Of a stretch of 61,592 nt of DNA, positions 23,255-33,211 are shown piece by piece. The translations under genes and the position numbers were made by a program. Positions within the stretch are counted from its first letter, which is position 1. Each line of letters opens with the position of its first letter. Source of the stretch: a virus; the IMG/VR virus record IMGVR_UViG_3300012929_000002. The stretch is one strand, 5' to 3'. Under the pieces are notes generated by a model. That model was given only the letters and a program-made list of their open reading frames with translations, was not told the DNA's origin and ran no database searches.

Positions 23255-24922
23255 GTGACTACTCCCAATCCGACCGCCATATTCAATCAGTACAGTAACG
23301 CGAAGATCTTCTTTAGCACCTCCGTTCCAAACTGGATCGGCGCCAATAAGGAAGACCAGGATCGTGTCCGGGCTTATATGTTCTATGAGCGGCTGTACTG
23401 GAACGTTCCCGATACGCTGGCTATTGTCGAGCGCGGAGAAGATAGCCTTCCCATTTATCTTCCTTCAGCCCGGAAGATGGTTGAGGCCTGCAATCGGTTC
23501 CTGTGTGTTGACTGGGACTACAGCATTACGAGCACGGCCGGTAGTGCCAGTGATCAGGCGCAGTGCAAGGTGTTGATGGACGGGTTGTTCAAGAATCAGA
23601 AGATGAAGGCGAAGTTCGCCCGGCAGAAGCGGTACGGTCTTATCAGGGGAGATGCCGTCTGGCATGTGCGGGCGGACGCTAATCGGCCGGCCGGCAGTCG
23701 CATCGACATCTATGAAGTAGATCCCACGAATGCGTTCCCTATTCTGGAGGATCTTAATCCGGATAGGATTATCGGATGGCATCTTATCGACCTAGTGCCC
23801 GACCCGCGTGATGTTACCAAGCAAGTGGTGCGTCGTCAGACATACACCAAGGCGACAGGCGATTACTTTGGCCCTAGTATCATCATGTCCAGCATCGGCT
23901 ATTACGAGCTAGGTAAATGGGACGACAGGAAGACGGCTACTAACGCCAATCCCGAGGTAGCCATGGTTCCGTGGGAGGGGGAGATATTGCCCTTCGAGCT
24001 GCCGACGGACATCACATACCTTCCGGTTTATCTAATCCCCAATCAGAAGCAGCCGTGTCAGACTTTCGGTAGTAGCGAGGTGCGGGGAATAGAGACTGTT
24101 ATCGCTAGCGTCAATCAGTCCGTGAGCGATCAGGACCTCACTCTTGCGATGCAGGGATTGGGAGTGTATACCTCCACGGCCGGGCCGCCGGTAGCCGCCG
24201 ACGGGACAGCAGGAACATTCGATATCGGTCCTGGAAGAGTTGTTGAGGTTCCAGCCGACGCTACATTCTCCAGAGTGAGCGGAGTAGGAGCTAGCCTGCC
24301 CGGAATTGAACACATGAATTTTATTCTTGGAGAAACACAGTCTGCCGTAGGCATCCCAGATATTGCGGCCGGCATTGTTGACGTCTCCGTCGCGGAAAGT
24401 GGCATCGCGCTCCAATTGCAACTCAGTCCTCTTCTTTCTCATAACAAGGAGAAGGAGACGGATATGATGGACGAGTACAACTGCATGTTCCGGGATTTGG
24501 TGGAGGGCTGGTTTCCGGCGTACGAAGGATTTGGTTCTAACACGGGTGTAGAGGTCACGATGATAACGGGCAATCCTGTACCCCAGGATAGAGCGGCCCG
24601 ATTTAAGGAGATTGTTGAATTGGTGCAAGCCGTCCCGCCGCTGATGTCTACTCGTACCGCGATTGATGAGCTAAATAAGATCGGGTACGACATGCCGAAG
24701 GACGAGTTGGATCAACTCACTCAGGAGGCACAAGCCCGAGCGCAGACAATGCAATTGGATCCGTTTGCTCAGCGTGCCCTGGGAGAGTTTGCTGCTCCGG
24801 TTAACTCGGCGGGCAATGCGGTGCCCCCTTCCACGCTGCCTGTAGCTCCGCCTAAGCCGATCAACGGTCTATCCGGGGGTGCTGGCGCTGCCGGGGGCCC
24901 TAAACCAGCCACAGGGCACTAG
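23255..24922 (+). CDS. Portal protein
   Basis: 555 aa directly after TerL. Called from gene order and size. No motif verified. Confidence 0.7.
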   Translation: MTTPNPTAIFNQYSNAKIFFSTSVPNWIGANKEDQDRVRAYMFYERLYWNVPDTLAIVERGEDSLPIYLPSARKMVEACNRFLCVDWDYSITSTAGSASDQAQCKVLMDGLFKNQKMKAKFARQKRYGLIRGDAVWHVRADANRPAGSRIDIYEVDPTNAFPILEDLNPDRIIGWHLIDLVPDPRDVTKQVVRRQTYTKATGDYFGPSIIMSSIGYYELGKWDDRKTATNANPEVAMVPWEGEILPFELPTDITYLPVYLIPNQKQPCQTFGSSEVRGIETVIASVNQSVSDQDLTLAMQGLGVYTSTAGPPVAADGTAGTFDIGPGRVVEVPADATFSRVSGVGASLPGIEHMNFILGETQSAVGIPDIAAGIVDVSVAESGIALQLQLSPLLSHNKEKETDMMDEYNCMFRDLVEGWFPAYEGFGSNTGVEVTMITGNPVPQDRAARFKEIVELVQAVPPLMSTRTAIDELNKIGYDMPKDELDQLTQEAQARAQTMQLDPFAQRALGEFAAPVNSAGNAVPPSTLPVAPPKPINGLSGGAGAAGGPKPATGH

Positions 24923-24977: not shown

Positions 24978-25211
24978 ATGAAGATGGCTGGTGGTTACGG
25001 CACGGAAGGAGACGTGTGGCCTACTATGCGACGGAAGCCAGCAATCAAGATCAAGAAGGCGAACCGGGGCAAGCTTCGCAAGGCGACGCGAACCAAGAAG
25101 GGCAAGACGATACCGGTCGCAACTCTGCGCAAGCTGACGAGCAGTAAGAACCCGACAACGCGTAAGCGAGCGAACTTCGCTCTTAACGCCAAGAAGTGGA
25201 AGAAGAAGTAA
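24978..25211 (+). CDS. Lys/Arg-rich small protein (77 aa)
   Basis: Track ORF with G/C-ending codons (aag, cgc, acg). Followed by the RBS of the next gene. The competing frame 24938..25147 looks less gene-like. Confidence 0.5.
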   Translation: MKMAGGYGTEGDVWPTMRRKPAIKIKKANRGKLRKATRTKKGKTIPVATLRKLTSSKNPTTRKRANFALNAKKWKKK

Positions 25212-25221
25212 GGAGGCGAAC

Positions 25222-25650
25222 GTGGGCGGCACCGGTAGCGGAGGGGCTCGTCCTTTTCATACTGATCCTAAGCAATGCGAGTACTGCGGAGACACTTACA
25301 CTCCACGAGGTAATCGTTCTAAGTATTGCCAGGAGTGCGCGCCAAACAGGTGGGCCTCTGGGCTCATCCGTAGATACGGAATAAGTTTTAAGGATTATAA
25401 GCAACTCCTAGAAGAACAGGATTACTGCTGCGCAATATGCAGCAATCCGTTTAGGAGCAGGGAGCTGCCGATATGGGTGCCGGGACAAGAACGCGTCGCA
25501 ACTGACATGCACGTAGACCACGATCATATAACCGGTTGGGTTCGTGGGATACTATGTCTTTCCTGTAATACACGGCTAGCCGCTTTGGAAGATGAGAAGT
25601 GGCATGACAAGGCGGAGAAGTACCTCGCCGAATGTACGGAGGTGAGTTGA
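25222..25650 (+). CDS. HNH endonuclease, recombination endonuclease VII type
   Basis: CAICSNPF...HVDHDHITGWVRGILCLSCNTRL matches the Endo VII HNH signature. AAGGAGG RBS and GTG start. Confidence 0.85.
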   Translation: MGGTGSGGARPFHTDPKQCEYCGDTYTPRGNRSKYCQECAPNRWASGLIRRYGISFKDYKQLLEEQDYCCAICSNPFRSRELPIWVPGQERVATDMHVDHDHITGWVRGILCLSCNTRLAALEDEKWHDKAEKYLAECTEVS

Positions 25651-25703: not shown

Positions 25704-25877
25704 ATGGGTTTTATTCCAAGGCTCAGTGGCGATAGCTACTTCTTCGCTAACAAGAAGCTGGCGGCCAAGTACGCTCACAATGCAGCGCACGCCACTCAGG
25801 CACGCGGAGGCGGCCCTAAGGTAGCCTTCCGTAGGTTGCCTCGTAAACTACATCCGGGGAAGAGGGTGGCTCGATGA
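25704..25877 (+). CDS. Small basic protein (57 aa; see the recoding note for 25655..25735)
   Basis: In frame within track ORF 25632..25877. ATGA coupling to the next gene. Confidence 0.4.
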   Translation: MGFIPRLSGDSYFFANKKLAAKYAHNAAHATQARGGGPKVAFRRLPRKLHPGKRVAR

Positions 25878-26239
25878 GCTTCACACCTTCCCTGCATCCC
25901 AGAGATCTATTGGGTCAGTTCAGTGGAGTCAGCGGGAGTAATAAGCGCCTCAAGAAGATCCATAAGTCTAAGGCGAAGCTCCAGGCGGCTCAGTCCAACT
26001 TTGTGGCGACAGCCAGTGTGCGCACCGTGGGCGGAGGGCGTAGGCCGCTCACTACGGCGGAAGCGCGCAGGTTCCTCAACGACACTAACGTCAGCGTCAA
26101 TAGGGTGCAGGGCGCTACGTCTGCTCGGCGGAGTGCGGCCAAGAAAGTTATGATCGCTCGGAGCGCGCATCTGAAGAACTTCGGGCGTAAGCCACGTCCG
26201 CTGCCTAGGGTTCGTAATGCCGGCAGGAGGCTAAAGTGA
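25874..26239 (+). CDS. Basic protein with HPRDxxGxF motif (121 aa)
   Basis: Track ORF with ATGA overlap. N-terminal SLHPRDLLGQF. Arg/Lys-rich. Confidence 0.6.
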   Translation: MSFTPSLHPRDLLGQFSGVSGSNKRLKKIHKSKAKLQAAQSNFVATASVRTVGGGRRPLTTAEARRFLNDTNVSVNRVQGATSARRSAAKKVMIARSAHLKNFGRKPRPLPRVRNAGRRLK

Positions 26240-26282
26240 CAGGATCGCTCGCCTTTAGTTCCTTCGGAACGGAGGCTCACTA

Positions 26283-26858
26283 ATGCCACTCCCAGCTATT
26301 ATCGGTGGTATCGCTGCGGCGAGGGCGGCGCACGGCATCTGGAACGCGAGCCGGCATCCTAGAGGCGAGGGCGGTCGGTTTGTTCCGGCAGGGAAGTTTA
26401 GCTATCGGGTGTCTACTCGTAGCGCTACTGTTCACTACGGGCACACATTTCCTCTTATCCCTGGTAAAGCTAATCTATACGTCGGGGCTCTGGCTCGAGT
26501 GGAACGGACTAGAGGACACGAGACGGCCGTGGAGAAAAAGATTAGGGCACGCGGCAAACAGCTCACGGAAAAGTTACCGGCCAAATTCCAGAGCGTTTTA
26601 AGTAAGGGCGGATACGAAAGTCCAAGCGGCACTACTATCAGTTTTAGTAAGCCCAAGATTCGTCAGCCACAGATTAGGGCCAGCAGGCGGATAGGAACAG
26701 TGGGTAAGGCTCCAGCTAAAATGCCGATCACGGGTGGTGGCACGGGAGTGCGTCAAGTTCGTAGCCCCAATCGCAAGCCGAGGACCAGGAGCATCACTCC
26801 GGCGACTGTTGCCCAGCCAACTCTCAGTAAGGCCACGGGGAAGAAGGTGAAGAAGTAA
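26283..26858 (+). CDS. Basic protein with HPRGxxGRF motif (191 aa)
   Basis: GGAGG RBS. SRHPRGEGGRFVPAG near the N-terminus. Arg/Lys-rich throughout. Confidence 0.6.
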   Translation: MPLPAIIGGIAAARAAHGIWNASRHPRGEGGRFVPAGKFSYRVSTRSATVHYGHTFPLIPGKANLYVGALARVERTRGHETAVEKKIRARGKQLTEKLPAKFQSVLSKGGYESPSGTTISFSKPKIRQPQIRASRRIGTVGKAPAKMPITGGGTGVRQVRSPNRKPRTRSITPATVAQPTLSKATGKKVKK

Positions 26859-26934: not shown

Positions 26935-27069
26935 ATGGCAAGCGCGAAGCAACTCGCGGCCCGCAAGGCTTTTGCAGCGAGAGCCAAAGCTCGGGCCGGC
27001 AAGAGTGGAAAGAAGAAGGTCGGCAAGAAGCCGGCGTTTCTGCTCAAGGGTAAGAGGAAAGGAAAGTAA
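26935..27069 (+). CDS. Basic micro-ORF (44 aa, MASAKQLAARKAFAARAKARAGKSGKKKVGKKPAFLLKGKRKGK)
   Basis: ATG lies 2 nt after the previous stop. 17 of 44 residues are K/R. Its stop is 1 nt before the JAB gene start. Confidence 0.4.
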   Translation: MASAKQLAARKAFAARAKARAGKSGKKKVGKKPAFLLKGKRKGK

Positions 27070-27070
27070 C

Positions 27071-27481
27071 ATGAGGCCGGAGACCCAGGAGTCCATGCCA
27101 CATGACATTGCTCACGAATTGCGCAGTCTTATTCCGCAAGTAGGTCCTGGAGTTTTTGAGCGTTGCGGATTTATTCTAGTGGACGCTAGCAGGAACTGGA
27201 AGATTATTGAGATAGAAAATAGAAGCGCTAATCCAGGTGAGTTTGTTATGGCTATAGAAGATCTTTCCCGACTATGGAATTCATACGGGACAGAGCTGAT
27301 CGGGGTATGGCATACTCATCCTCGTGGAGATAGAAGGCCGAGCGAGAAGGATGTCCAGTGGGCGCCTCCGGATCTTAGATACTGGATAGTGACGGAGTGG
27401 GGAGTGTCGGAATACGATATGGCTCAGAGTCCTGTGAAATGTATTGCTTATCATGGGATGCCGGATAATGGACGCTCGTGA
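27071..27481 (+). CDS. JAB/MPN (JAMM) metallopeptidase
   Basis: Complete JAMM motif: upstream Glu (FERCGFIL) plus HTHPRGDRRPSEKD (HxHx7Sx2D). In frame within track ORF 26972..27481. Confidence 0.7.
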   Translation: MRPETQESMPHDIAHELRSLIPQVGPGVFERCGFILVDASRNWKIIEIENRSANPGEFVMAIEDLSRLWNSYGTELIGVWHTHPRGDRRPSEKDVQWAPPDLRYWIVTEWGVSEYDMAQSPVKCIAYHGMPDNGRS

Positions 27482-28375: not shown

Positions 28376-29059
28376 ATGAACATTCACGCGGGGCTGTGCC
28401 CCGACCTCGTCCGGTTGTGCCGGCGAGTTCCTGTCTGGGTTTCCGTTGGCATCTCCGGCGCCGAGGGCGAAGGCTCTGGAACTGGTGACGGTAACGGTGA
28501 CAACGCAGACGGAGAAACCCCGAGGGAGAAGGCCCTTCGGGAAGAGAAAGACAGGCATTTCGCTAAGGCTAGGGAAGCCAAGGAAAAGCTTGAAGCTGCC
28601 GAGGCCACTCTGGCAGAAGTGAATGCCCGCCTCAAGGAAATTGAGGACAAGGATAAGAGCGAAACGGAAAAGGCCAAGTCCGATGCCGAGGCTGCGCTTA
28701 CGGCAAAGGAAAAGGCTGACGCGGATCTAGTCGCTGCCCAGAAGAAGAATGACGAGCTTCAGATCCAGATTGCGTTCCTGGCGAGTAGCAAGTACACCTG
28801 GCATGACGCCGGTGTCGCACTACAGCTAGTGAACGGCTTTGGCGAGATAGAGGTTAAAGACGGTGAGGTAAAGGGGCTGGACAAGGCGATCGATAAGATG
28901 GCCAAGGACAAGCCTTTCCTAGTGAAGTCTGGGGGCACTGCGGCTGGTGGAGTAAGCGGTCAGCAGCCCAACGGATCCAGTACTCGACCTGCCGGACAAG
29001 AGGGAATCACAAACGCTCAGAAAGCTGAATTAGCAACGAAGTACAACATCCCCCGCTAG
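28376..29059 (+). CDS. Scaffolding protein
   Basis: Ala/Glu/Lys-rich coiled-coil-like sequence between MuF and the capsid gene. Start uncertain. Confidence 0.6.
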   Translation: MNIHAGLCPDLVRLCRRVPVWVSVGISGAEGEGSGTGDGNGDNADGETPREKALREEKDRHFAKAREAKEKLEAAEATLAEVNARLKEIEDKDKSETEKAKSDAEAALTAKEKADADLVAAQKKNDELQIQIAFLASSKYTWHDAGVALQLVNGFGEIEVKDGEVKGLDKAIDKMAKDKPFLVKSGGTAAGGVSGQQPNGSSTRPAGQEGITNAQKAELATKYNIPR

Positions 29060-29096: not shown

Positions 29097-29537
29097 ATGG
29101 CCCGCTATGATAAGTACAATCCGGTTTCGGGAGGGTTCCGAGCCGTACTGGCGGCGGACTACGCTCCCGGCGCCGCTAACCCGGCCGACCCGCTGAACCC
29201 GGCTAACTTCAACAAGGTCTTCCCAGCGCAGATGGATACTACCGGTGCTATTCTGGCTCCGGCGGCTGCGGTCTTCGGCAAGTTCGTCGGAGTCTTCATC
29301 ATCAGCGGTCTGATCAAGTATGCCGGTGATGTTATTGACATCATGACGGCTGGTGAGATTGTGGACTTTGACGACGGCAAGCAAGCCGGTGTCGTGGCTA
29401 ACCAAGCTTGGTACGCCGACCCGGCGACGGGCCTGCTCACCCTTACTCCTCCCGGTTCTGGCGTGAATGGCTTTTACGTCGGTAACACGGTGGAAGCTGG
29501 CCGCCTGATCGTTCGCTGTCAGAAGGTGCAACTGTGA
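29097..29537 (+). CDS. Head-associated protein (possible decoration/DUF2190-like)
   Basis: AGGAG RBS. Lies between the scaffold and capsid genes. The function is guessed from position. Confidence 0.4.
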   Translation: MARYDKYNPVSGGFRAVLAADYAPGAANPADPLNPANFNKVFPAQMDTTGAILAPAAAVFGKFVGVFIISGLIKYAGDVIDIMTAGEIVDFDDGKQAGVVANQAWYADPATGLLTLTPPGSGVNGFYVGNTVEAGRLIVRCQKVQL

Positions 29538-30736
29538 AGACTGCATACAGTATCAATCGCCGAACCGGCGAACTCACGCCTGGCTGGGTCCTCGGCGGTA
29601 TTCGAGGCGCGGAGCACGGCTACAACGCCGAAGGTGATATCCTTAACGTCACGGCGGATGGCCGCGATATCACTGGTCTCTGGACGGAGTTTCAGCAGAC
29701 GCTGGCCATTTATAACGAGCGTCGTACTACGCTGGTCGGCATCCTCACGTTCCCGATTCAGCAACTCGTTGAGGACGTTCCTGTTATCGGCGAGACGAAC
29801 TTCGAGCTCGCGTCTGAGTTCGGTGTGCCGGTGGGCGTGCGGCCGCGAGTGCAGTACAACAGTCTGGCGTACGACTTCCATGACTACGATGTCGCTAGTC
29901 GGTTTACCTGGAAGTTCATCAGGGACGCTAGCGCTCAGCAGGTGGAGGCTGTTCATCAGCAGATTCTGAACGCCGATAATCGCCTCCTATTCCGCAAGGT
30001 AATGGAAGCGATCTTCGACAATCGGGATCGTAGTACGCTGGTCAATCGGACTGCGTATACGGTGGTTCCACTTTACAACGCTGACGGTGTTGTTCCTCCG
30101 CCCTACAAGAACACTACGTTCGCGGGCAGTCATAGTCACTACCTGGTTAGTGGCGCCGCTAACATCGATAGCGACGACGTCATGGCGCTTTACAATCTGG
30201 TGGCCGAGCACGGTTACGGCATTGAACAGGGGACGACGTTCGTTCTCTTGTGTAACCAGGCCGAAGTCGATAAGATTCGTACCTGGCGAGCCGGAGTCGT
30301 TAACGCCAACGGTGTCACAGCCAACTACGACTTCATCCCTTCGGCCAGTCAGCCGACGATCATCCTACCTAACGCGGAGGGCTTGCTCGGTAGTCAGCCG
30401 CCGAGTATCTGGAACGGTCTGCCCGTCGTGGGGTCTTACGCGGACATCTTAATCGTCCACGAAGACTACATCCCGGCCGGCTATCCGTTGCTGCTGGGCA
30501 GCGGCGGGAACGGCAATCTCCAGAATCCGGTCGGTCTGCGGGAACACGCGAATCCGGCGTACCGGGGTCTGCGCCTGCTGCCGGGTAATAACCAGGCGTA
30601 TCCGCTGATCGACAGCTACTATGCTCGCGCTTTTGGCACGGGTGTACGGCAGCGCGGCGGCGCGGCAGTGCTGATGGTCGGCACCGGCAGTTACGTCATT
30701 CCTCCGCAGTACATCAAGGGTGGTGCTCTCGGATGA
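29534..30736 (+). CDS. Major capsid protein
   Basis: 400 aa. GTGA coupling to the upstream gene. Position after the scaffold. Confidence 0.7.
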   Translation: MKTAYSINRRTGELTPGWVLGGIRGAEHGYNAEGDILNVTADGRDITGLWTEFQQTLAIYNERRTTLVGILTFPIQQLVEDVPVIGETNFELASEFGVPVGVRPRVQYNSLAYDFHDYDVASRFTWKFIRDASAQQVEAVHQQILNADNRLLFRKVMEAIFDNRDRSTLVNRTAYTVVPLYNADGVVPPPYKNTTFAGSHSHYLVSGAANIDSDDVMALYNLVAEHGYGIEQGTTFVLLCNQAEVDKIRTWRAGVVNANGVTANYDFIPSASQPTIILPNAEGLLGSQPPSIWNGLPVVGSYADILIVHEDYIPAGYPLLLGSGGNGNLQNPVGLREHANPAYRGLRLLPGNNQAYPLIDSYYARAFGTGVRQRGGAAVLMVGTGSYVIPPQYIKGGALG

Positions 30737-31062
30737 GCGTGAAGATCGATCTCACCAAACCCCTGACCGAAGAGCACGTGGAATACCTTCGGGCGCGGGG
30801 AGCCTGGGGCGAGCGGCAGCTCGCCGAGAACAAGGCGTTGTTGAGTCAGCAGGAATTTTACGCCGCTAAGGAGCGCCCGGAGCCGGACGAGATGTCGGTC
30901 GAGGAAAAGGTAAAGCTCTTGGAAGAGGCCGAGGTGTGGATTACAAACGCCAAGGTTCCGGAACTGAAGCAGCGCCTTAGTGAAGAAGGTTTGTCAACCG
31001 AGGGGAAGCAGGACGAGTTGCGAACCCGCTTGATGGATCTTGTGACTGAGCGCTACTCGTAG
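30733..31062 (+). CDS. SAP-domain protein (109 aa)
   Basis: ATGA overlap. C-terminal VPELKQRLSEEGLSTEGKQDELRTRLMD fits the SAP helix-extension-helix consensus. Confidence 0.6.
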   Translation: MSVKIDLTKPLTEEHVEYLRARGAWGERQLAENKALLSQQEFYAAKERPEPDEMSVEEKVKLLEEAEVWITNAKVPELKQRLSEEGLSTEGKQDELRTRLMDLVTERYS

Positions 31063-31130: not shown

Positions 31131-31454
31131 ATGGCAGACGCGATAGCGGTAACTCAGGCTATGGAGATGCTCGGTCCGGATGCCCCCGCTAATGGTTGGG
31201 ATGAGATTAGGGTCGGGCAAGATCTGGACAATGGTCTTACGATTAATGCCATCGCGCTGGCCTGGTGGCGGGCTCGCATGGCCCAGACAGCCAACATGAT
31301 GGACGTGAGCGAGGCGGGTAGTAGTAGAAGTCTGGGGCAAGCCTGGCAACACGCCCAGGCGATGGTTAACTATTACCAGGCAGAAGTTCTGCGCGAGACT
31401 CCAGTGGATAACCCTCGAGGCACTCTTCGTAGCTATCCCATGAGGAGGGTCTGA
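31131..31454 (+). CDS. Head-tail connector protein (positional call)
   Basis: Track ORF after the capsid-module terminator. GAAGGGAAAG upstream. Confidence 0.45.
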   Translation: MADAIAVTQAMEMLGPDAPANGWDEIRVGQDLDNGLTINAIALAWWRARMAQTANMMDVSEAGSSRSLGQAWQHAQAMVNYYQAEVLRETPVDNPRGTLRSYPMRRV

Positions 31455-31849
31455 TGTTGTGGGATAGGACAGAGGAGATAAAGATACAGCGCTCCACTAC
31501 CCTGTCCTTCATAAACGCTGATCCGATCACGGTAGTGTTAATTCCTAGGGTTAAGACGGCTGTCAGAGGTGTCGTCGAATTTGTAGACGATAGCCCGAGA
31601 AGCCCTCAGGTAATGAAGCTAATAATGCAGTCTGCGGCTGGCGGAAGTATAGAACAGCACACGGGAGACGGAACCGAACGTCGCACGGACTTTCAGTTGT
31701 TGGGGGCCTGGGATAGTCTAGGGGATATCGGAGATCATTGGCGAGACTCGAGTGGCCAGTGGTGGGAGATAACGGCTATAGTCCCCGAGAACGGACACGA
31801 GCGTCGCTATGTAGTTGAGTCCTATGGTAAGCATCCGGTCGGCGGTTGA
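31454..31849 (+). CDS. Head-tail adaptor/closure protein (positional call)
   Basis: TGATG overlap. Called from gene order. Confidence 0.45.
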   Translation: MLWDRTEEIKIQRSTTLSFINADPITVVLIPRVKTAVRGVVEFVDDSPRSPQVMKLIMQSAAGGSIEQHTGDGTERRTDFQLLGAWDSLGDIGDHWRDSSGQWWEITAIVPENGHERRYVVESYGKHPVGG

Positions 31850-31850
31850 G

Positions 31851-32213
31851 ATGGCTAACAAAACCAGTTTTGATTTTGAATTAGGAGCCATGGAGGGCAG
31901 GCTCCTCGAGCTGGACGAGAAATTACACGCCGGGATAACCCTGGCAGTGGATGAAGTTGCCGTGTTTGGAACTACATACATGAAGACTACTGCTCCCTGG
32001 CATGATGACACTGGAGCTGCGAGGGCTGGTCTTCATACACTCACTAGTCATCTGGGGAATAGGTGGGAGATAGCTTTTGCGCACGCGGTGAGCTACGGGA
32101 TATGGCTAGAGGTGGCTCATAGCGGAAGATATCAGGTGATTCTACCTAGTGTTAGAGTCGCCATGGATCGTCTAGGGCATCATCTACAGGGGATAATGGG
32201 GCAGATAAAATGA
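31851..32213 (+). CDS. Neck/tail-completion protein, HK97 gp10-like
   Basis: ATG lies 2 nt after the upstream stop. The region ...TAPWHDDTGAARAGL... resembles my memory of gp10-family proteins. Confidence 0.45.
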   Translation: MANKTSFDFELGAMEGRLLELDEKLHAGITLAVDEVAVFGTTYMKTTAPWHDDTGAARAGLHTLTSHLGNRWEIAFAHAVSYGIWLEVAHSGRYQVILPSVRVAMDRLGHHLQGIMGQIK

Positions 32214-32629
32214 GGGATATTCAAGGCGCCCTGTACGGCCTTCTCTCTACTGCTGCTCTGGCCGGAACAGATCCGGCTCTTCTTCAGGAAGACATATACT
32301 TCAATGACAGCCTAGATAGCGCGCCGAAAGACAGGCTCTTCGCTATTATAAGAATGGGAACATGGGAAATTCATAATAGTAGCGGAACACTCGCTCGGCG
32401 GAACTTTAGCGTATGGGTTCATGCTCCTAGACGTCAATGGCTGGATCATTCGGTAACCAGGACCGTTCTGTTACAGCGTGTCGTTCCTATTCTTTTGGGC
32501 GCTACGCAGATATCCGGAAATGATGGAATAATGACCTCTTGCTGTTTCGGCGGGATTAGCGGAGATCTTACTGACGAGGGCTATCAAACAATCACGAATA
32601 ATGCCAGCTTTGAGGCCGGCGTACTGTAG
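32210..32629 (+). CDS. Tail terminator/completion protein (positional call)
   Basis: ATGA overlap. Called from gene order. Confidence 0.4.
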   Translation: MRDIQGALYGLLSTAALAGTDPALLQEDIYFNDSLDSAPKDRLFAIIRMGTWEIHNSSGTLARRNFSVWVHAPRRQWLDHSVTRTVLLQRVVPILLGATQISGNDGIMTSCCFGGISGDLTDEGYQTITNNASFEAGVL

Positions 32630-32654
32630 AATGACGGTAAAGATTGGAGATATA

Positions 32655-32975
32655 ATGGCTACCCTAGACGGTCCAGACGACGCTCAGGCTCTTACTACTC
32701 GTCGTCGGACGAGCAAGCCAGTCGCCCAAGCGGACGGGAGCGTTAAGGAAGAGGCAATTCCTGAGCTGGAGGGCCCCCAGGTCCAGTATATCGGCCCGGC
32801 CTCGAGGCGGATTCTTGGTCCGGACGATTGGGAGACGCTGGGGATTTCTGATGCGGATCACAAGAAGTATGTGTGGGATCTGTCTAACTCCAAGTGCATC
32901 CGCAAGTCTGAGTTTAGTCCTCAGCAGTTGGACTATCTGAGAGTAGACGGACGCTTTCAGATTGACGAAGGGTAG
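32655..32975 (+). CDS. Hypothetical protein (106 aa)
   Basis: GGAGA RBS. In frame within track ORF 32601..32975. Confidence 0.5.
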   Translation: MATLDGPDDAQALTTRRRTSKPVAQADGSVKEEAIPELEGPQVQYIGPASRRILGPDDWETLGISDADHKKYVWDLSNSKCIRKSEFSPQQLDYLRVDGRFQIDEG

Positions 32976-32977
32976 CG

Positions 32978-33211
32978 ATGGACGTCCGGTGTCCCCATAA
33001 GAAGCACGCTGTTCTTGACGACCATCATATCGAAGTCAAGTGCAACAGCCGTTTCTGTGGGGCTGAGCCGGGAGTAGTAGTTCTTCACGTGTTTGATAAA
33101 ATCACGGGGGAGCTATTGAGGACGAGCCGGTTCAAGGATCCGGCCTTTAGATCTAGAAGGAAGGAATCCAGTGCCAGTTCCTCAGAACGTGTCCCTGCCG
33201 TACGGCATTAG
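32978..33211 (+). CDS. Small Com-like zinc-finger-type protein (77 aa)
   Basis: MDVRCPHKKHAVLDDHHIEVKCNSRFCG resembles the Mu Com layout (RCxxC...IEIxCxxC) with degenerate knuckles. Its 3' end overlaps the major tail gene. Confidence 0.4.
   Translation: MDVRCPHKKHAVLDDHHIEVKCNSRFCGAEPGVVVLHVFDKITGELLRTSRFKDPAFRSRRKESSASSSERVPAVRH

Follow-up and report, generated by a model that had tools for sequence, protein, structure and literature searches.

What does a stand-alone JAB metallopeptidase do among the head genes of a phage? The question is raised by the IMG/VR virus record IMGVR_UViG_3300012929_000002, a stretch of 61,592 nucleotides (nt) that was analysed over its whole length (the window). 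One gene of the window codes for a small JAB/MPN+ protein of the JAMM type (JAB, below), and it is encoded between the portal and the capsid protein, as prohead proteases are. We propose, with moderate confidence, that JAB is a head-maturation leader peptidase that reads a site resembling the ubiquitin tail on both the capsid and the scaffolding protein. In relatives of the phage, processing of these two proteins at the motif is supported by published mass spectrometry data and by the boundaries of structures obtained by cryo-electron microscopy (cryo-EM). We infer that JAB is the enzyme making the cuts, and its time and place of action are likewise proposed; no other protease candidate was detectable in the module.

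The JAB gene and its catalytic site

The gene and its active-site residues are located as follows:

27071..27481, + strand, stand-alone JAB/MPN+ (JAMM) metallopeptidase gene, 136 amino acids (MRPETQES...NGRS), from the open reading frame (ORF), Pfam, PHROGs and an AlphaFold 2 (AF2) model
27158..27160, + strand, codon of the catalytic Glu30, within FERCGFIL; invariant in 58 homologues and aligned with the Glu of the PfJAMM1 E-x-C-G segment
27311..27352, + strand, zinc-binding/catalytic motif H81-T-H83-x7-S91-x2-D94, from the sequence and the alignment of homologues

The mechanical ORF of JAB opens earlier, at TTG 26972. The likely start codon is ATG 27071, from which translation to TGA 27479-27481 gives the 136-amino acid product, because a conserved 44-amino acid ORF ends at 27069, a Shine-Dalgarno sequence (AGGAAAGGA) precedes the ATG, and the closest homologues, P0002 (136 amino acids) and P0003 (133 amino acids), begin at the same residues.

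A word-indexed protein search with JAB returned two relatives only, and an exhaustive search with a hidden Markov model (HMM) collected 370 representative JAB clusters at E <= 1e-3, nearly all of 100-190 amino acids. An alignment of 58 homologues was drawn from these clusters and served as input for the AlphaFold model. The catalytic site of JAB reads H81-T-H83-PRGDRRP-S91-EK-D94 (HxHx7Sx2D). E30, H83, S91 and D94 are invariant in the alignment and H81 is at least 90% conserved; all five residues align onto the site of PfJAMM1. The regular expression H.H.{6,9}S..D has four matches in the six frames of the window, one of them within the JAB-profile ORF. Pfam PF14464, Prok-JAB (MEROPS M67), matched JAB with 44.6 bits (gathering score 25; E 1.6e-11), and phrog_5556 matched it with E 1.3e-17. 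The initial annotation had described an intact JAMM signature in this stand-alone protein, and both the residues (E30 and HxHx7Sx2D) and the Prok-JAB match bear it out.

The AF2 model of JAB shows the cytidine-deaminase-like MPN fold and has a predicted local distance difference test score of 92 and a predicted template modelling (TM) score of 0.86. In a Foldseek search, its top matches were the structures of PfJAMM1 alone and SAMP2-bound (5LD9/5LDA; E 4e-6, TM 0.65-0.69), followed by Cap3 and then by AMSH, Rpn11 and CSN5. Structural matches to JAB orthologues in BFVD had TM scores of 0.6-0.76. The conservation of the catalytic residues across the family argues for catalysis, and on balance we consider it likely that the 136-amino acid product is an active zinc JAMM/MPN+ peptidase, serving as the head-maturation protease of the lineage.

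Profile searches against the JAB subfamilies, as suggested in the initial annotation, matched JAB to Prok-JAB and left it below the cut-offs of the other models. It scored 13.1 bits with the NCBIfam Cap3 model NF050170 (cut-off 200 bits), 22.3 bits with the desampylase model NF041370 (130 bits) and 13.4 bits with the RadC model (180 bits), and RadC structures ranked low in the fold search. The PADLOC defence JAB models aligned to residues 63-98 only, i.e., to the catalytic segment. The archaeal desampylases PfJAMM1 (5LD9/5LDA) and HvJAMM1 resemble JAB in their size (∼130 amino acids), minimal MPN+ fold and E/HxH/S/D site. They act on folded ubiquitin-like SAMP conjugates in cellular pathways, cleaving directly after the Gly-Gly tail, whereas the proposed substrate of JAB is a short leader of virion proteins. 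Cap3, an isopeptidase of the cyclic-oligonucleotide-based anti-phage signalling system (CBASS; PDB 9ILD), shares the Prok-JAB fold (TM ∼0.5) and the catalytic motif. JAB scores far below the Cap3 cut-off and, unlike Cap3, stands in a phage late operon: no CD-NTase/Cap2 (E1-E2) operon was found around JAB, whose neighbours are genes for the portal, basic virion proteins, MuF and scaffold.

A leader motif common to the capsid and scaffolding proteins

The two proposed substrates and the ends of their leaders are encoded downstream of JAB (arrows mark predicted or published boundaries):

28376..29059, + strand, scaffolding protein, 227 amino acids (Pfam Phage_scaffold, E 3.1e-13; phrog_4866)
28427..28462, + strand, end of the scaffold leader VPVWVSVGISGA (residues 18-29), predicted cleavage A29↓E30 (+/- one residue), E30 codon at 28463; from alignment to Patience gp21 PIFGG↓T35
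29534..30736, + strand, major capsid protein, 400 amino acids, Patience-like HK97 fold (phrog_3990, E 2e-149)
29576..29611, + strand, end of the capsid leader TPGWVLGGIRGA (residues 15-26), predicted cleavage A26↓E27 (+/- one residue), E27 codon at 29612; from alignment to Patience gp23 PIFGG↓T20 and Adjutor LSGH-D-N28

The scaffolding proteins align poorly over an N-terminal segment of 20-35 residues, except at its end, where a sharply conserved motif precedes the acidic region. In the capsid proteins the leader motif likewise comes immediately before G-Y-x-T-x-G-D, the conserved sequence with which the N-arm begins. The two leaders of the window have P-x-W-V-x-x-G-I-x-G-A-E in common, with GGIRGA↓E in the capsid and VGISGA↓E in the scaffold. 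The corresponding pairs (capsid, then scaffold) are VFPIFGG↓T and VLPIFGG↓T in Patience, FPIFGG↓T and WPIFGG↓E in Konstantine, VGLSGH↓D and LTLSGH↓D in PLot/Adjutor, and AIKGS↓E and VIKGS↓E in locus L010. A single pattern stands in both proteins of Madi (KFFAFGG↓DGG) and of loci L016 (LPFGA↓E) and L024 (FPIFGG↓T). The consensus is hydrophobic(P4)-x-Gly(P2)-Gly/Ala/Ser(P1), then Glu, Asp or Thr; where P1 is a residue other than Gly, the cleavage site could lie one residue to either side.

Within one genome the capsid and scaffold motifs are nearly alike, and between phages they vary in concert. The pattern specific to a phage was found on the coding (+) strand in those two proteins only, with a few chance matches on the minus strand in some loci, and GI.GA[ED] occurs exactly twice in the six frames of the 61.6-kb window. 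When the capsid and scaffold octamers of 15 genomes were paired within their own genomes, 64/120 positions were identical versus 38.2 expected, a value reached in none of 200,000 permutations.

The leader consensus is in the same register as the ubiquitin tail, Leu-Arg-Gly-Gly, after which JAMM enzymes cut. The leaders removed by double-glycine peptidases (the C39 domains of bacteriocin ABC exporters) likewise end in hydrophobic(-4)-x-Gly(-2)-Gly/Ala/Ser(-1). The C39 enzymes are cysteine proteases of an unrelated fold whose action is coupled to export; the similarity is one of convergent substrates only.

Published boundaries in Patience and Adjutor

The N-terminal-most peptides of the Patience scaffolding protein, gp21, have residue 35 as their first residue, with a Gly before it, a start that neither trypsin cleavage nor translation initiation would produce (Pope et al. 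2014, PMC4324244). The same study listed gp21 among the N-terminally acetylated proteins and left its start unexplained (PMC4324244). In gp21, IFGG occupies residues 31-34 and the Thr is residue 35. Peptides that start at T35, together with the listing as N-terminally acetylated, point to processing of gp21 in vivo right after the motif. The 2.4 Å model of the Patience capsid protein, gp23, was trimmed to Thr20, with no density for residues 1-19 (PMC11965321), and the IFGG of gp23 spans residues 16-19. The Adjutor capsid model begins at Asn28 (PMC11965321); its LSGH spans residues 23-26. Three independent boundaries, gp21 T35, gp23 T20 and Adjutor N28, coincide with the motif.

As to other Patience virion proteins, the decoration protein keeps its initiator Met, and the minor capsid protein is trimeric (PMC11965321). 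The N-terminus of the Patience MuF protein is acetylated after loss of Met (PMC4324244), which argues that MuF is not an N-terminal substrate in this phage. The basic 'cargo' proteins lack the GI-x-GA↓E motif, and a weak AIIGG is found near the N-terminus of one of them, p191. The initial annotation had put JAB forward as the maturation protease of the adjacent basic cargo, scaffold or MuF proteins. The protease role is supported by these data; the probable substrates are the capsid and scaffolding proteins, which share the motif, and not MuF, while nothing found here speaks for the cargo proteins.

Conservation of the JAB-capsid module

The remaining genes of the head module in the window are:

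23255..24922, + strand, portal protein, at the upstream edge of the module (phrog_64, E 4e-32)
25874..26858, + strand, two very basic proteins, presumed virion-internal, between portal and JAB: 121 amino acids at 25874-26239 and 191 amino acids (p191) at 26283-26858
26935..27069, + strand, very basic 44-amino acid ORF (isoelectric point, pI, 12) with a 1-nt spacer to JAB; conserved in loci L003 and L004
27468..28346, + strand, MuF / SPP1 gp7-like minor head protein (PHROG head-morphogenesis families; phrog_1657, 1e-29)
29097..29537, + strand, minor capsid/decoration protein, 146 amino acids, orthologue of Patience gp22 (phrog_5042)

The longest MuF ORF starts at TTG 27444. Pfam Phage_Mu_F gave 21 bits with it, under the cut-off of 29.6, and the NCBIfam MuF models likewise remained under their cut-offs; the assignment as a putative MuF rests mainly on PHROGs. 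An overlap between the 3′ end of JAB and the MuF start, noted in the initial annotation, was found again: it measures 14 nt from ATG 27468 or 38 nt from TTG 27444, and the orthologous pair of L003 also overlaps by 14 nt. The absence of an HK97- or ClpP-type prohead protease from the late module, likewise noted there, holds at HMM sensitivity among the scanned ORFs: apart from JAB, no protease was detected with Pfam and/or PHROGs HMMs among the larger ORFs of 21.6-31.1 kb and ten ORFs of the tail region (31131-33211 was left unscanned). The p191 protein, considered as an alternative protease, has no profile matches.

The window (56% GC, no tRNAs, nearly all genes on the + strand) is probably a nearly complete phage genome. 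Megablast found no close DNA-level relative of its head region among the GenBank phages. Among the GTDB species representatives no prophage copy or host was found for JAB, and a three-sequence alignment retrieved nothing but distant JABs of cellular or archaeal origin, all of them stand-alone and none with head genes in its vicinity.

In the Patience-like capsid lineage the usual order is portal, small basic proteins, JAB, MuF, scaffold, decoration, capsid. The 20 closest JAB-bearing loci (two metagenomic contigs, 15 IMG/VR contigs, the Gordonia phages Wojtek and Madi, and Patience) all carry the head module. Nineteen of these loci extend to the gene after JAB, and in 18 of them this gene is MuF, the exception being Madi, which has no MuF there; the scaffold, a ∼140-amino acid decoration protein and the capsid protein come after JAB-MuF. 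HMM searches found JAB also in mycobacteriophage clusters D (PLot, Adjutor gp11) and H (Konstantine gp16), and the head-module context is conserved in clusters D, H and U alike. The capsid protein of the window shares 50-59% of its residues with those of Gordonia and Mycobacterium phages; for Microbacterium phages the identity is 45%. With tblastn, the capsid query matched 46 Gordonia, 72 Mycobacterium and 38 Microbacterium phages and JAB-type queries matched 46, 68 and 36, respectively (separate counts, not cross-matched). Even a freshwater phage with a capsid protein only 23% identical (MW202482; L092 352-1083, 1672-2799; L093 8276-8722) has kept portal, JAB, MuF ... scaffold and capsid. In this relative, a D-Ala-D-Ala carboxypeptidase-like gene stands between portal and JAB.

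The orthologues Patience gp19, Konstantine gp16, PLot/Adjutor gp11 and those of the Gordonia Lambovirus/Terapinvirus phages belong to the same phrog_5556 family, occupy the same place in the head module and accompany the same capsid family; they differ in being 27-40% identical to the JAB of this uncultured, 56% GC phage. In databases the Gordonia orthologues go by 'metalloprotease' and Patience gp19 by 'Protease'; PLot/Adjutor gp11 is a 'putative metal protease', the label 'putative metal protease/tail assembly' is also in use, and in Giuseppe the name is 'capsid maturation protease'. These names are positional or HHpred guesses, given without a mechanism. In the literature searched we found no published substrate, cleavage site, mutant or mechanism for any JAB orthologue, and the literature on polyvalent proteins and polymorphic toxins covers the RadC and Tox-JAB clades, with no head-module JAB.

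Krampus-type Microbacterium phages have no JAB in the head position. A divergent candidate, gp3 (142 amino acids, L057 89-517, HSHYITVEPSEAD), lies upstream of the terminase gene; it scores 16 bits with Prok-JAB, below the Pfam cut-off, has an hhalign probability of 64%, and was found in 36 such phages. Because of this gp3, the Krampus-type phages were discarded as a natural control lacking JAB. In Krampus itself, gp14 (L057 5767-7185) is a MuF protein to which a toxin domain, an ADP-ribosyltransferase, is fused (Pfam E 3.7e-12). JAB is stably tied to the capsid lineage and not to MuF, because Madi has no MuF beside JAB, PLot has the two genes apart, and in Krampus they lie far from each other.

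Two proteins labelled 'head maturation protease' in PHROGs, Patience gp18 (L056 7281-7886) and Konstantine gp15 (L059 6338-7111), were considered as proteases and rejected: they are extremely basic and have no catalytic motif and no Pfam or PDB match. The N-terminus of gp18 resembles the 44-amino acid ORF of the window, and a short internal segment resembles p191. The family phrog_12708 is a very basic virion protein without protease features, despite its 'head maturation protease' label, and phrog_17987 and phrog_595 match through the MuF region only (positions 16-299 of 856 for phrog_17987). The PHROG/RefSeq 'head maturation protease' labels on MuF and on Patience gp18 thus appear to be wrong.

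Proposed mechanism and alternative functions

In the mechanism that we propose, the capsid and scaffolding proteins would be made with short N-terminal leaders, of 26 and 29 residues in the window. The substrate groove of JAB would accommodate the extended leader tail much as the groove of other JAMM enzymes accommodates a ubiquitin-like tail, and JAB would hydrolyse the peptide bond after the motif (A26↓E27 for the capsid, A29↓E30 for the scaffold), so that the mature N-termini would be released during or before procapsid assembly. Rpn11, AMSH, HvJAMM1 and the Mec+/CysO system provide the precedent: their cleavage site immediately follows a C-terminal Gly-Gly tail, and some of these enzymes hydrolyse linear peptide bonds.

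The classical prohead proteases are serine proteases, either of the HK97 gp4/T4 gp21/herpesvirus assemblin fold or ClpP/S49-like as lambda gpC. JAB would resemble them in that their genes lie between portal and capsid and that N-terminal segments are removed at a short common motif. It differs in fold, which is MPN/JAMM and neither HK97/T4/assemblin nor ClpP/S49, and in extent, since in most cases the classical enzymes excise a long delta domain or digest the scaffold, whereas JAB, as a zinc JAMM enzyme, would take off 19-35 residues. If JAB is the maturation protease, it belongs to a different catalytic class from the known prohead proteases.

Several points weigh against JAB as a leader peptidase. 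The link between JAB and the cuts is one that we infer. To our knowledge, what a JAMM enzyme recognises is a folded domain of the ubiquitin type, and Gly is obligatory at P1. The leaders proposed here as substrates are short and unfolded, and in many phages, the window included, their P1 residue is Ala, Ser, His or Arg. On the capsid side the evidence is limited to the absence of density for residues 1-19, and disorder could have the same effect. The cleavage windows of the 15-genome test were hand-curated from alignments and some of the phages are related; in four of the 15 pairs (L006, L008, L013 and L017) the motifs agree at three or fewer of the eight positions. The 23%-identical relative MW202482 has a JAB and no recognisable G-[GA] motif, and the Microbacterium candidate is divergent and lies upstream of the terminase gene. 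A cut of gp23 between residues 82 and 83 was inferred in 2014 (PMC4324244); we rejected such a delta-domain-type cut, because the 2025 structure models residues 20-82 (PMC11965321). The scaffold and capsid N-termini of MW202482 read K-x-R-F-S-D and A-K-F-A-D, with at most [RK]F[SA]D in common, which may reflect a shifted JAB specificity.

Among the alternatives, the one to which we give a small but real chance is that the leader motif is an assembly-interaction element, docking to the portal, the scaffold or the capsid interior, which is left uncleaved or is cut by the host, with JAB having an unrelated or non-catalytic role. The covariation of the motifs shows a common partner and not cleavage, missing cryo-EM density can mean disorder, and a second N-terminal peptide, GY.TEGD, is common to the capsid and a small basic protein with no hint of cleavage. 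The gp21 peptides from T35 and the acetylation point, however, to processing in vivo; gp21 T35, gp23 T20 and Adjutor N28 all fall at the motif; the catalytic residues of JAB are conserved family-wide; and the hosts comprise several actinobacterial genera plus unknown metagenomic hosts, which makes a common host protease less economical. We rate it as unlikely that JAB is a protease with other targets, such as the upstream basic internal proteins, MuF or, once JAB has been ejected, proteins of the infected cell, and not the capsid and scaffold leaders. Its gene is tightly coupled to its neighbours, being spaced 1 nt from the basic ORF and overlapping MuF, the upstream proteins have conserved motifs at the N-terminus (HPRxxxG.F; AIIGG of p191), and Patience gp24 loses its C-terminal half in association with assembly (PMC4324244). 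Against such targets, only ∼7 of ∼20 loci with a JAB have the HPR motif, the Gordonia loci L001 and L002 being among those that lack it, the MuF N-terminus of Patience is intact and acetylated, and JAB persists without an adjacent MuF in Madi, PLot and Krampus.

The initial annotation had also considered a counter-defence deconjugase, and our searches gave no positive evidence for it. Such an enzyme would strip Bil-type tags off virion proteins or reverse the Cap2 priming of CD-NTases, and might be carried in the capsid with MuF. In its favour, the active site of JAB is intact, its fold is nearest to enzymes that remove ubiquitin-like proteins (PfJAMM1-SAMP2, Cap3), its proposed h-x-G-G specificity resembles the ubiquitin tail and could in principle act on ubiquitin-like tails, and it adjoins MuF, which in other phages carries injected effectors (as in the Krampus MuF-ADP-ribosyltransferase). 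We nevertheless consider this improbable as the main function: JAB scores 13 versus 200 bits for Cap3 and the PADLOC JAB models cover residues 63-98 only, it is a fixed core gene of the head module over very divergent phages, unlike a variable accessory gene, and the leader motif common to capsid and scaffold would be left unaccounted for. Furthermore, Patience gp19 is listed as 'Protease' and not as a virion protein (PMC4324244). A dual role, in which the leader peptidase would also protect from Bil or CBASS Cap2 conjugation, by stripping tags or through released h-x-G-G leaders acting as decoys of host E1/E2, seems quite improbable. That JAB is a tail-tip assembly or cell-wall peptidase component like lambda gpK, located in the head region by chance, is hardly credible. 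The best PHROG families of JAB bear the labels 'tail protein' (phrog_5556) or 'minor tail protein', the N-terminal MPN domain of gpK is likewise a phage-encoded Prok-JAB with detectable similarity to head-module JABs, and the PLot orthologue matches it with 30% identity (E 4e-4). In gpK, however, this domain is fused to NlpC/P60 (C40) and encoded in the tail-tip cluster. JAB is stand-alone in the head cluster, between portal and MuF, has a single Prok-JAB domain and no NlpC/P60 in the Pfam scan, and counts 136 amino acids against ∼200-240 for gpK-type proteins. The tail genes begin with the major tail protein gene at 33171, ∼6 kb downstream; profile and motif scans found no second JAB in the window and no JAB or NlpC protein in the tail module. 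The 'tail' labels appear to be annotation transfer, since the same gene is alternately called 'metalloprotease' in GenBank/RefSeq copies of the same phages. Accordingly, the firm assignment to gpK-like tail peptidases that the initial annotation had set against a head role did not result. In IMG/VR, JAB-containing ORFs of ∼237 amino acids (L019-L055) have no head genes nearby, and we read them as gpK-like, judging by length only.

Returning to JAB as head-maturation leader peptidase, the gene family and a vague 'protease' label were already known from actinobacteriophage databases, to which the window adds a distant member. What appears to be new is a JAMM-type capsid-maturation protease with ubiquitin-tail-like leader sites on the capsid and scaffold, no description of which was found in the literature searched. 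As far as we know, all well-characterised capsid-maturation proteases of tailed phages and herpesviruses are serine proteases of two fold families. If the proposal is true, a zinc JAMM enzyme is an independent solution to capsid maturation, and short N-terminal leaders, instead of folded ubiquitin-like domains, form a new class of JAB substrates. It would also account for the non-tryptic N-terminus of Patience gp21 and for the first 19 and 27 residues missing from the Patience and Adjutor capsid structures, and it would correct the widespread labels 'tail protein' (for the JAB family) and 'head maturation protease' (for MuF and the basic virion protein). The proposal is testable in phages already in culture collections (Patience, Adjutor and the Gordonia phages).

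Other genes and motifs of the head region

An endonuclease VII gene (25222-25650; Pfam E 2.9e-15) lies between the portal and the basic-protein genes. It is also found in L003, is absent from this position in L004, and stands between terminase and portal in Patience; it looks like a mobile insertion. Just 3′ of the capsid protein gene, a 109-amino acid protein (30733-31062) has a C-terminal SAP DNA-binding motif (Pfam E 8.5e-7), and its Wojtek homologue is annotated as 'ssDNA binding protein'.

At the position of the basic proteins, all Patience genes but gp9 encode virion proteins by mass spectrometry (PMC4324244). The basic proteins 25874-26239 and 26283-26858 of the window carry HPRxxxG[KRQ][FW] at or near the N-terminus (in fuller form W-N-x-x-L-H-P-R-x-x-x-G-K-F). 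This motif occurs twice in the six frames of the window and in one to three consecutive small basic proteins of related loci (L003, L004, L009, L010, L012 and L013), but the Gordonia loci lack it. It possibly serves to target the proteins to the capsid or to dock them; a full-text search for HPRxxxG.F gave no relevant match. The N-terminus of p191 (26283-26312), MPLPAIIGG↓I, fits h-x-G-[GA]. The L003 and L004 orthologues have AILGA and AIIGG, and those in L009, L010 and L013 lack the AIIGG extension. This segment may be a third JAB site or merely a hydrophobic one.

A further small, very basic protein (pI 12; 24978-25211, probable start ATG 24984) begins M-A-G-G-Y-G-T-E-G-D-V, with equivalents in L003 (∼1026), L004 (∼2724), L016 (7616), L017 (6905) and L018 (6398). 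This start mirrors the one predicted for the mature capsid protein, E-H-G-Y-N-A-E-G-D-I, and G[YFI]..[EQA]GD[ILV] is found in the whole window only in these two proteins, which suggests that the small protein docks where the terminus of the capsid N-arm docks.

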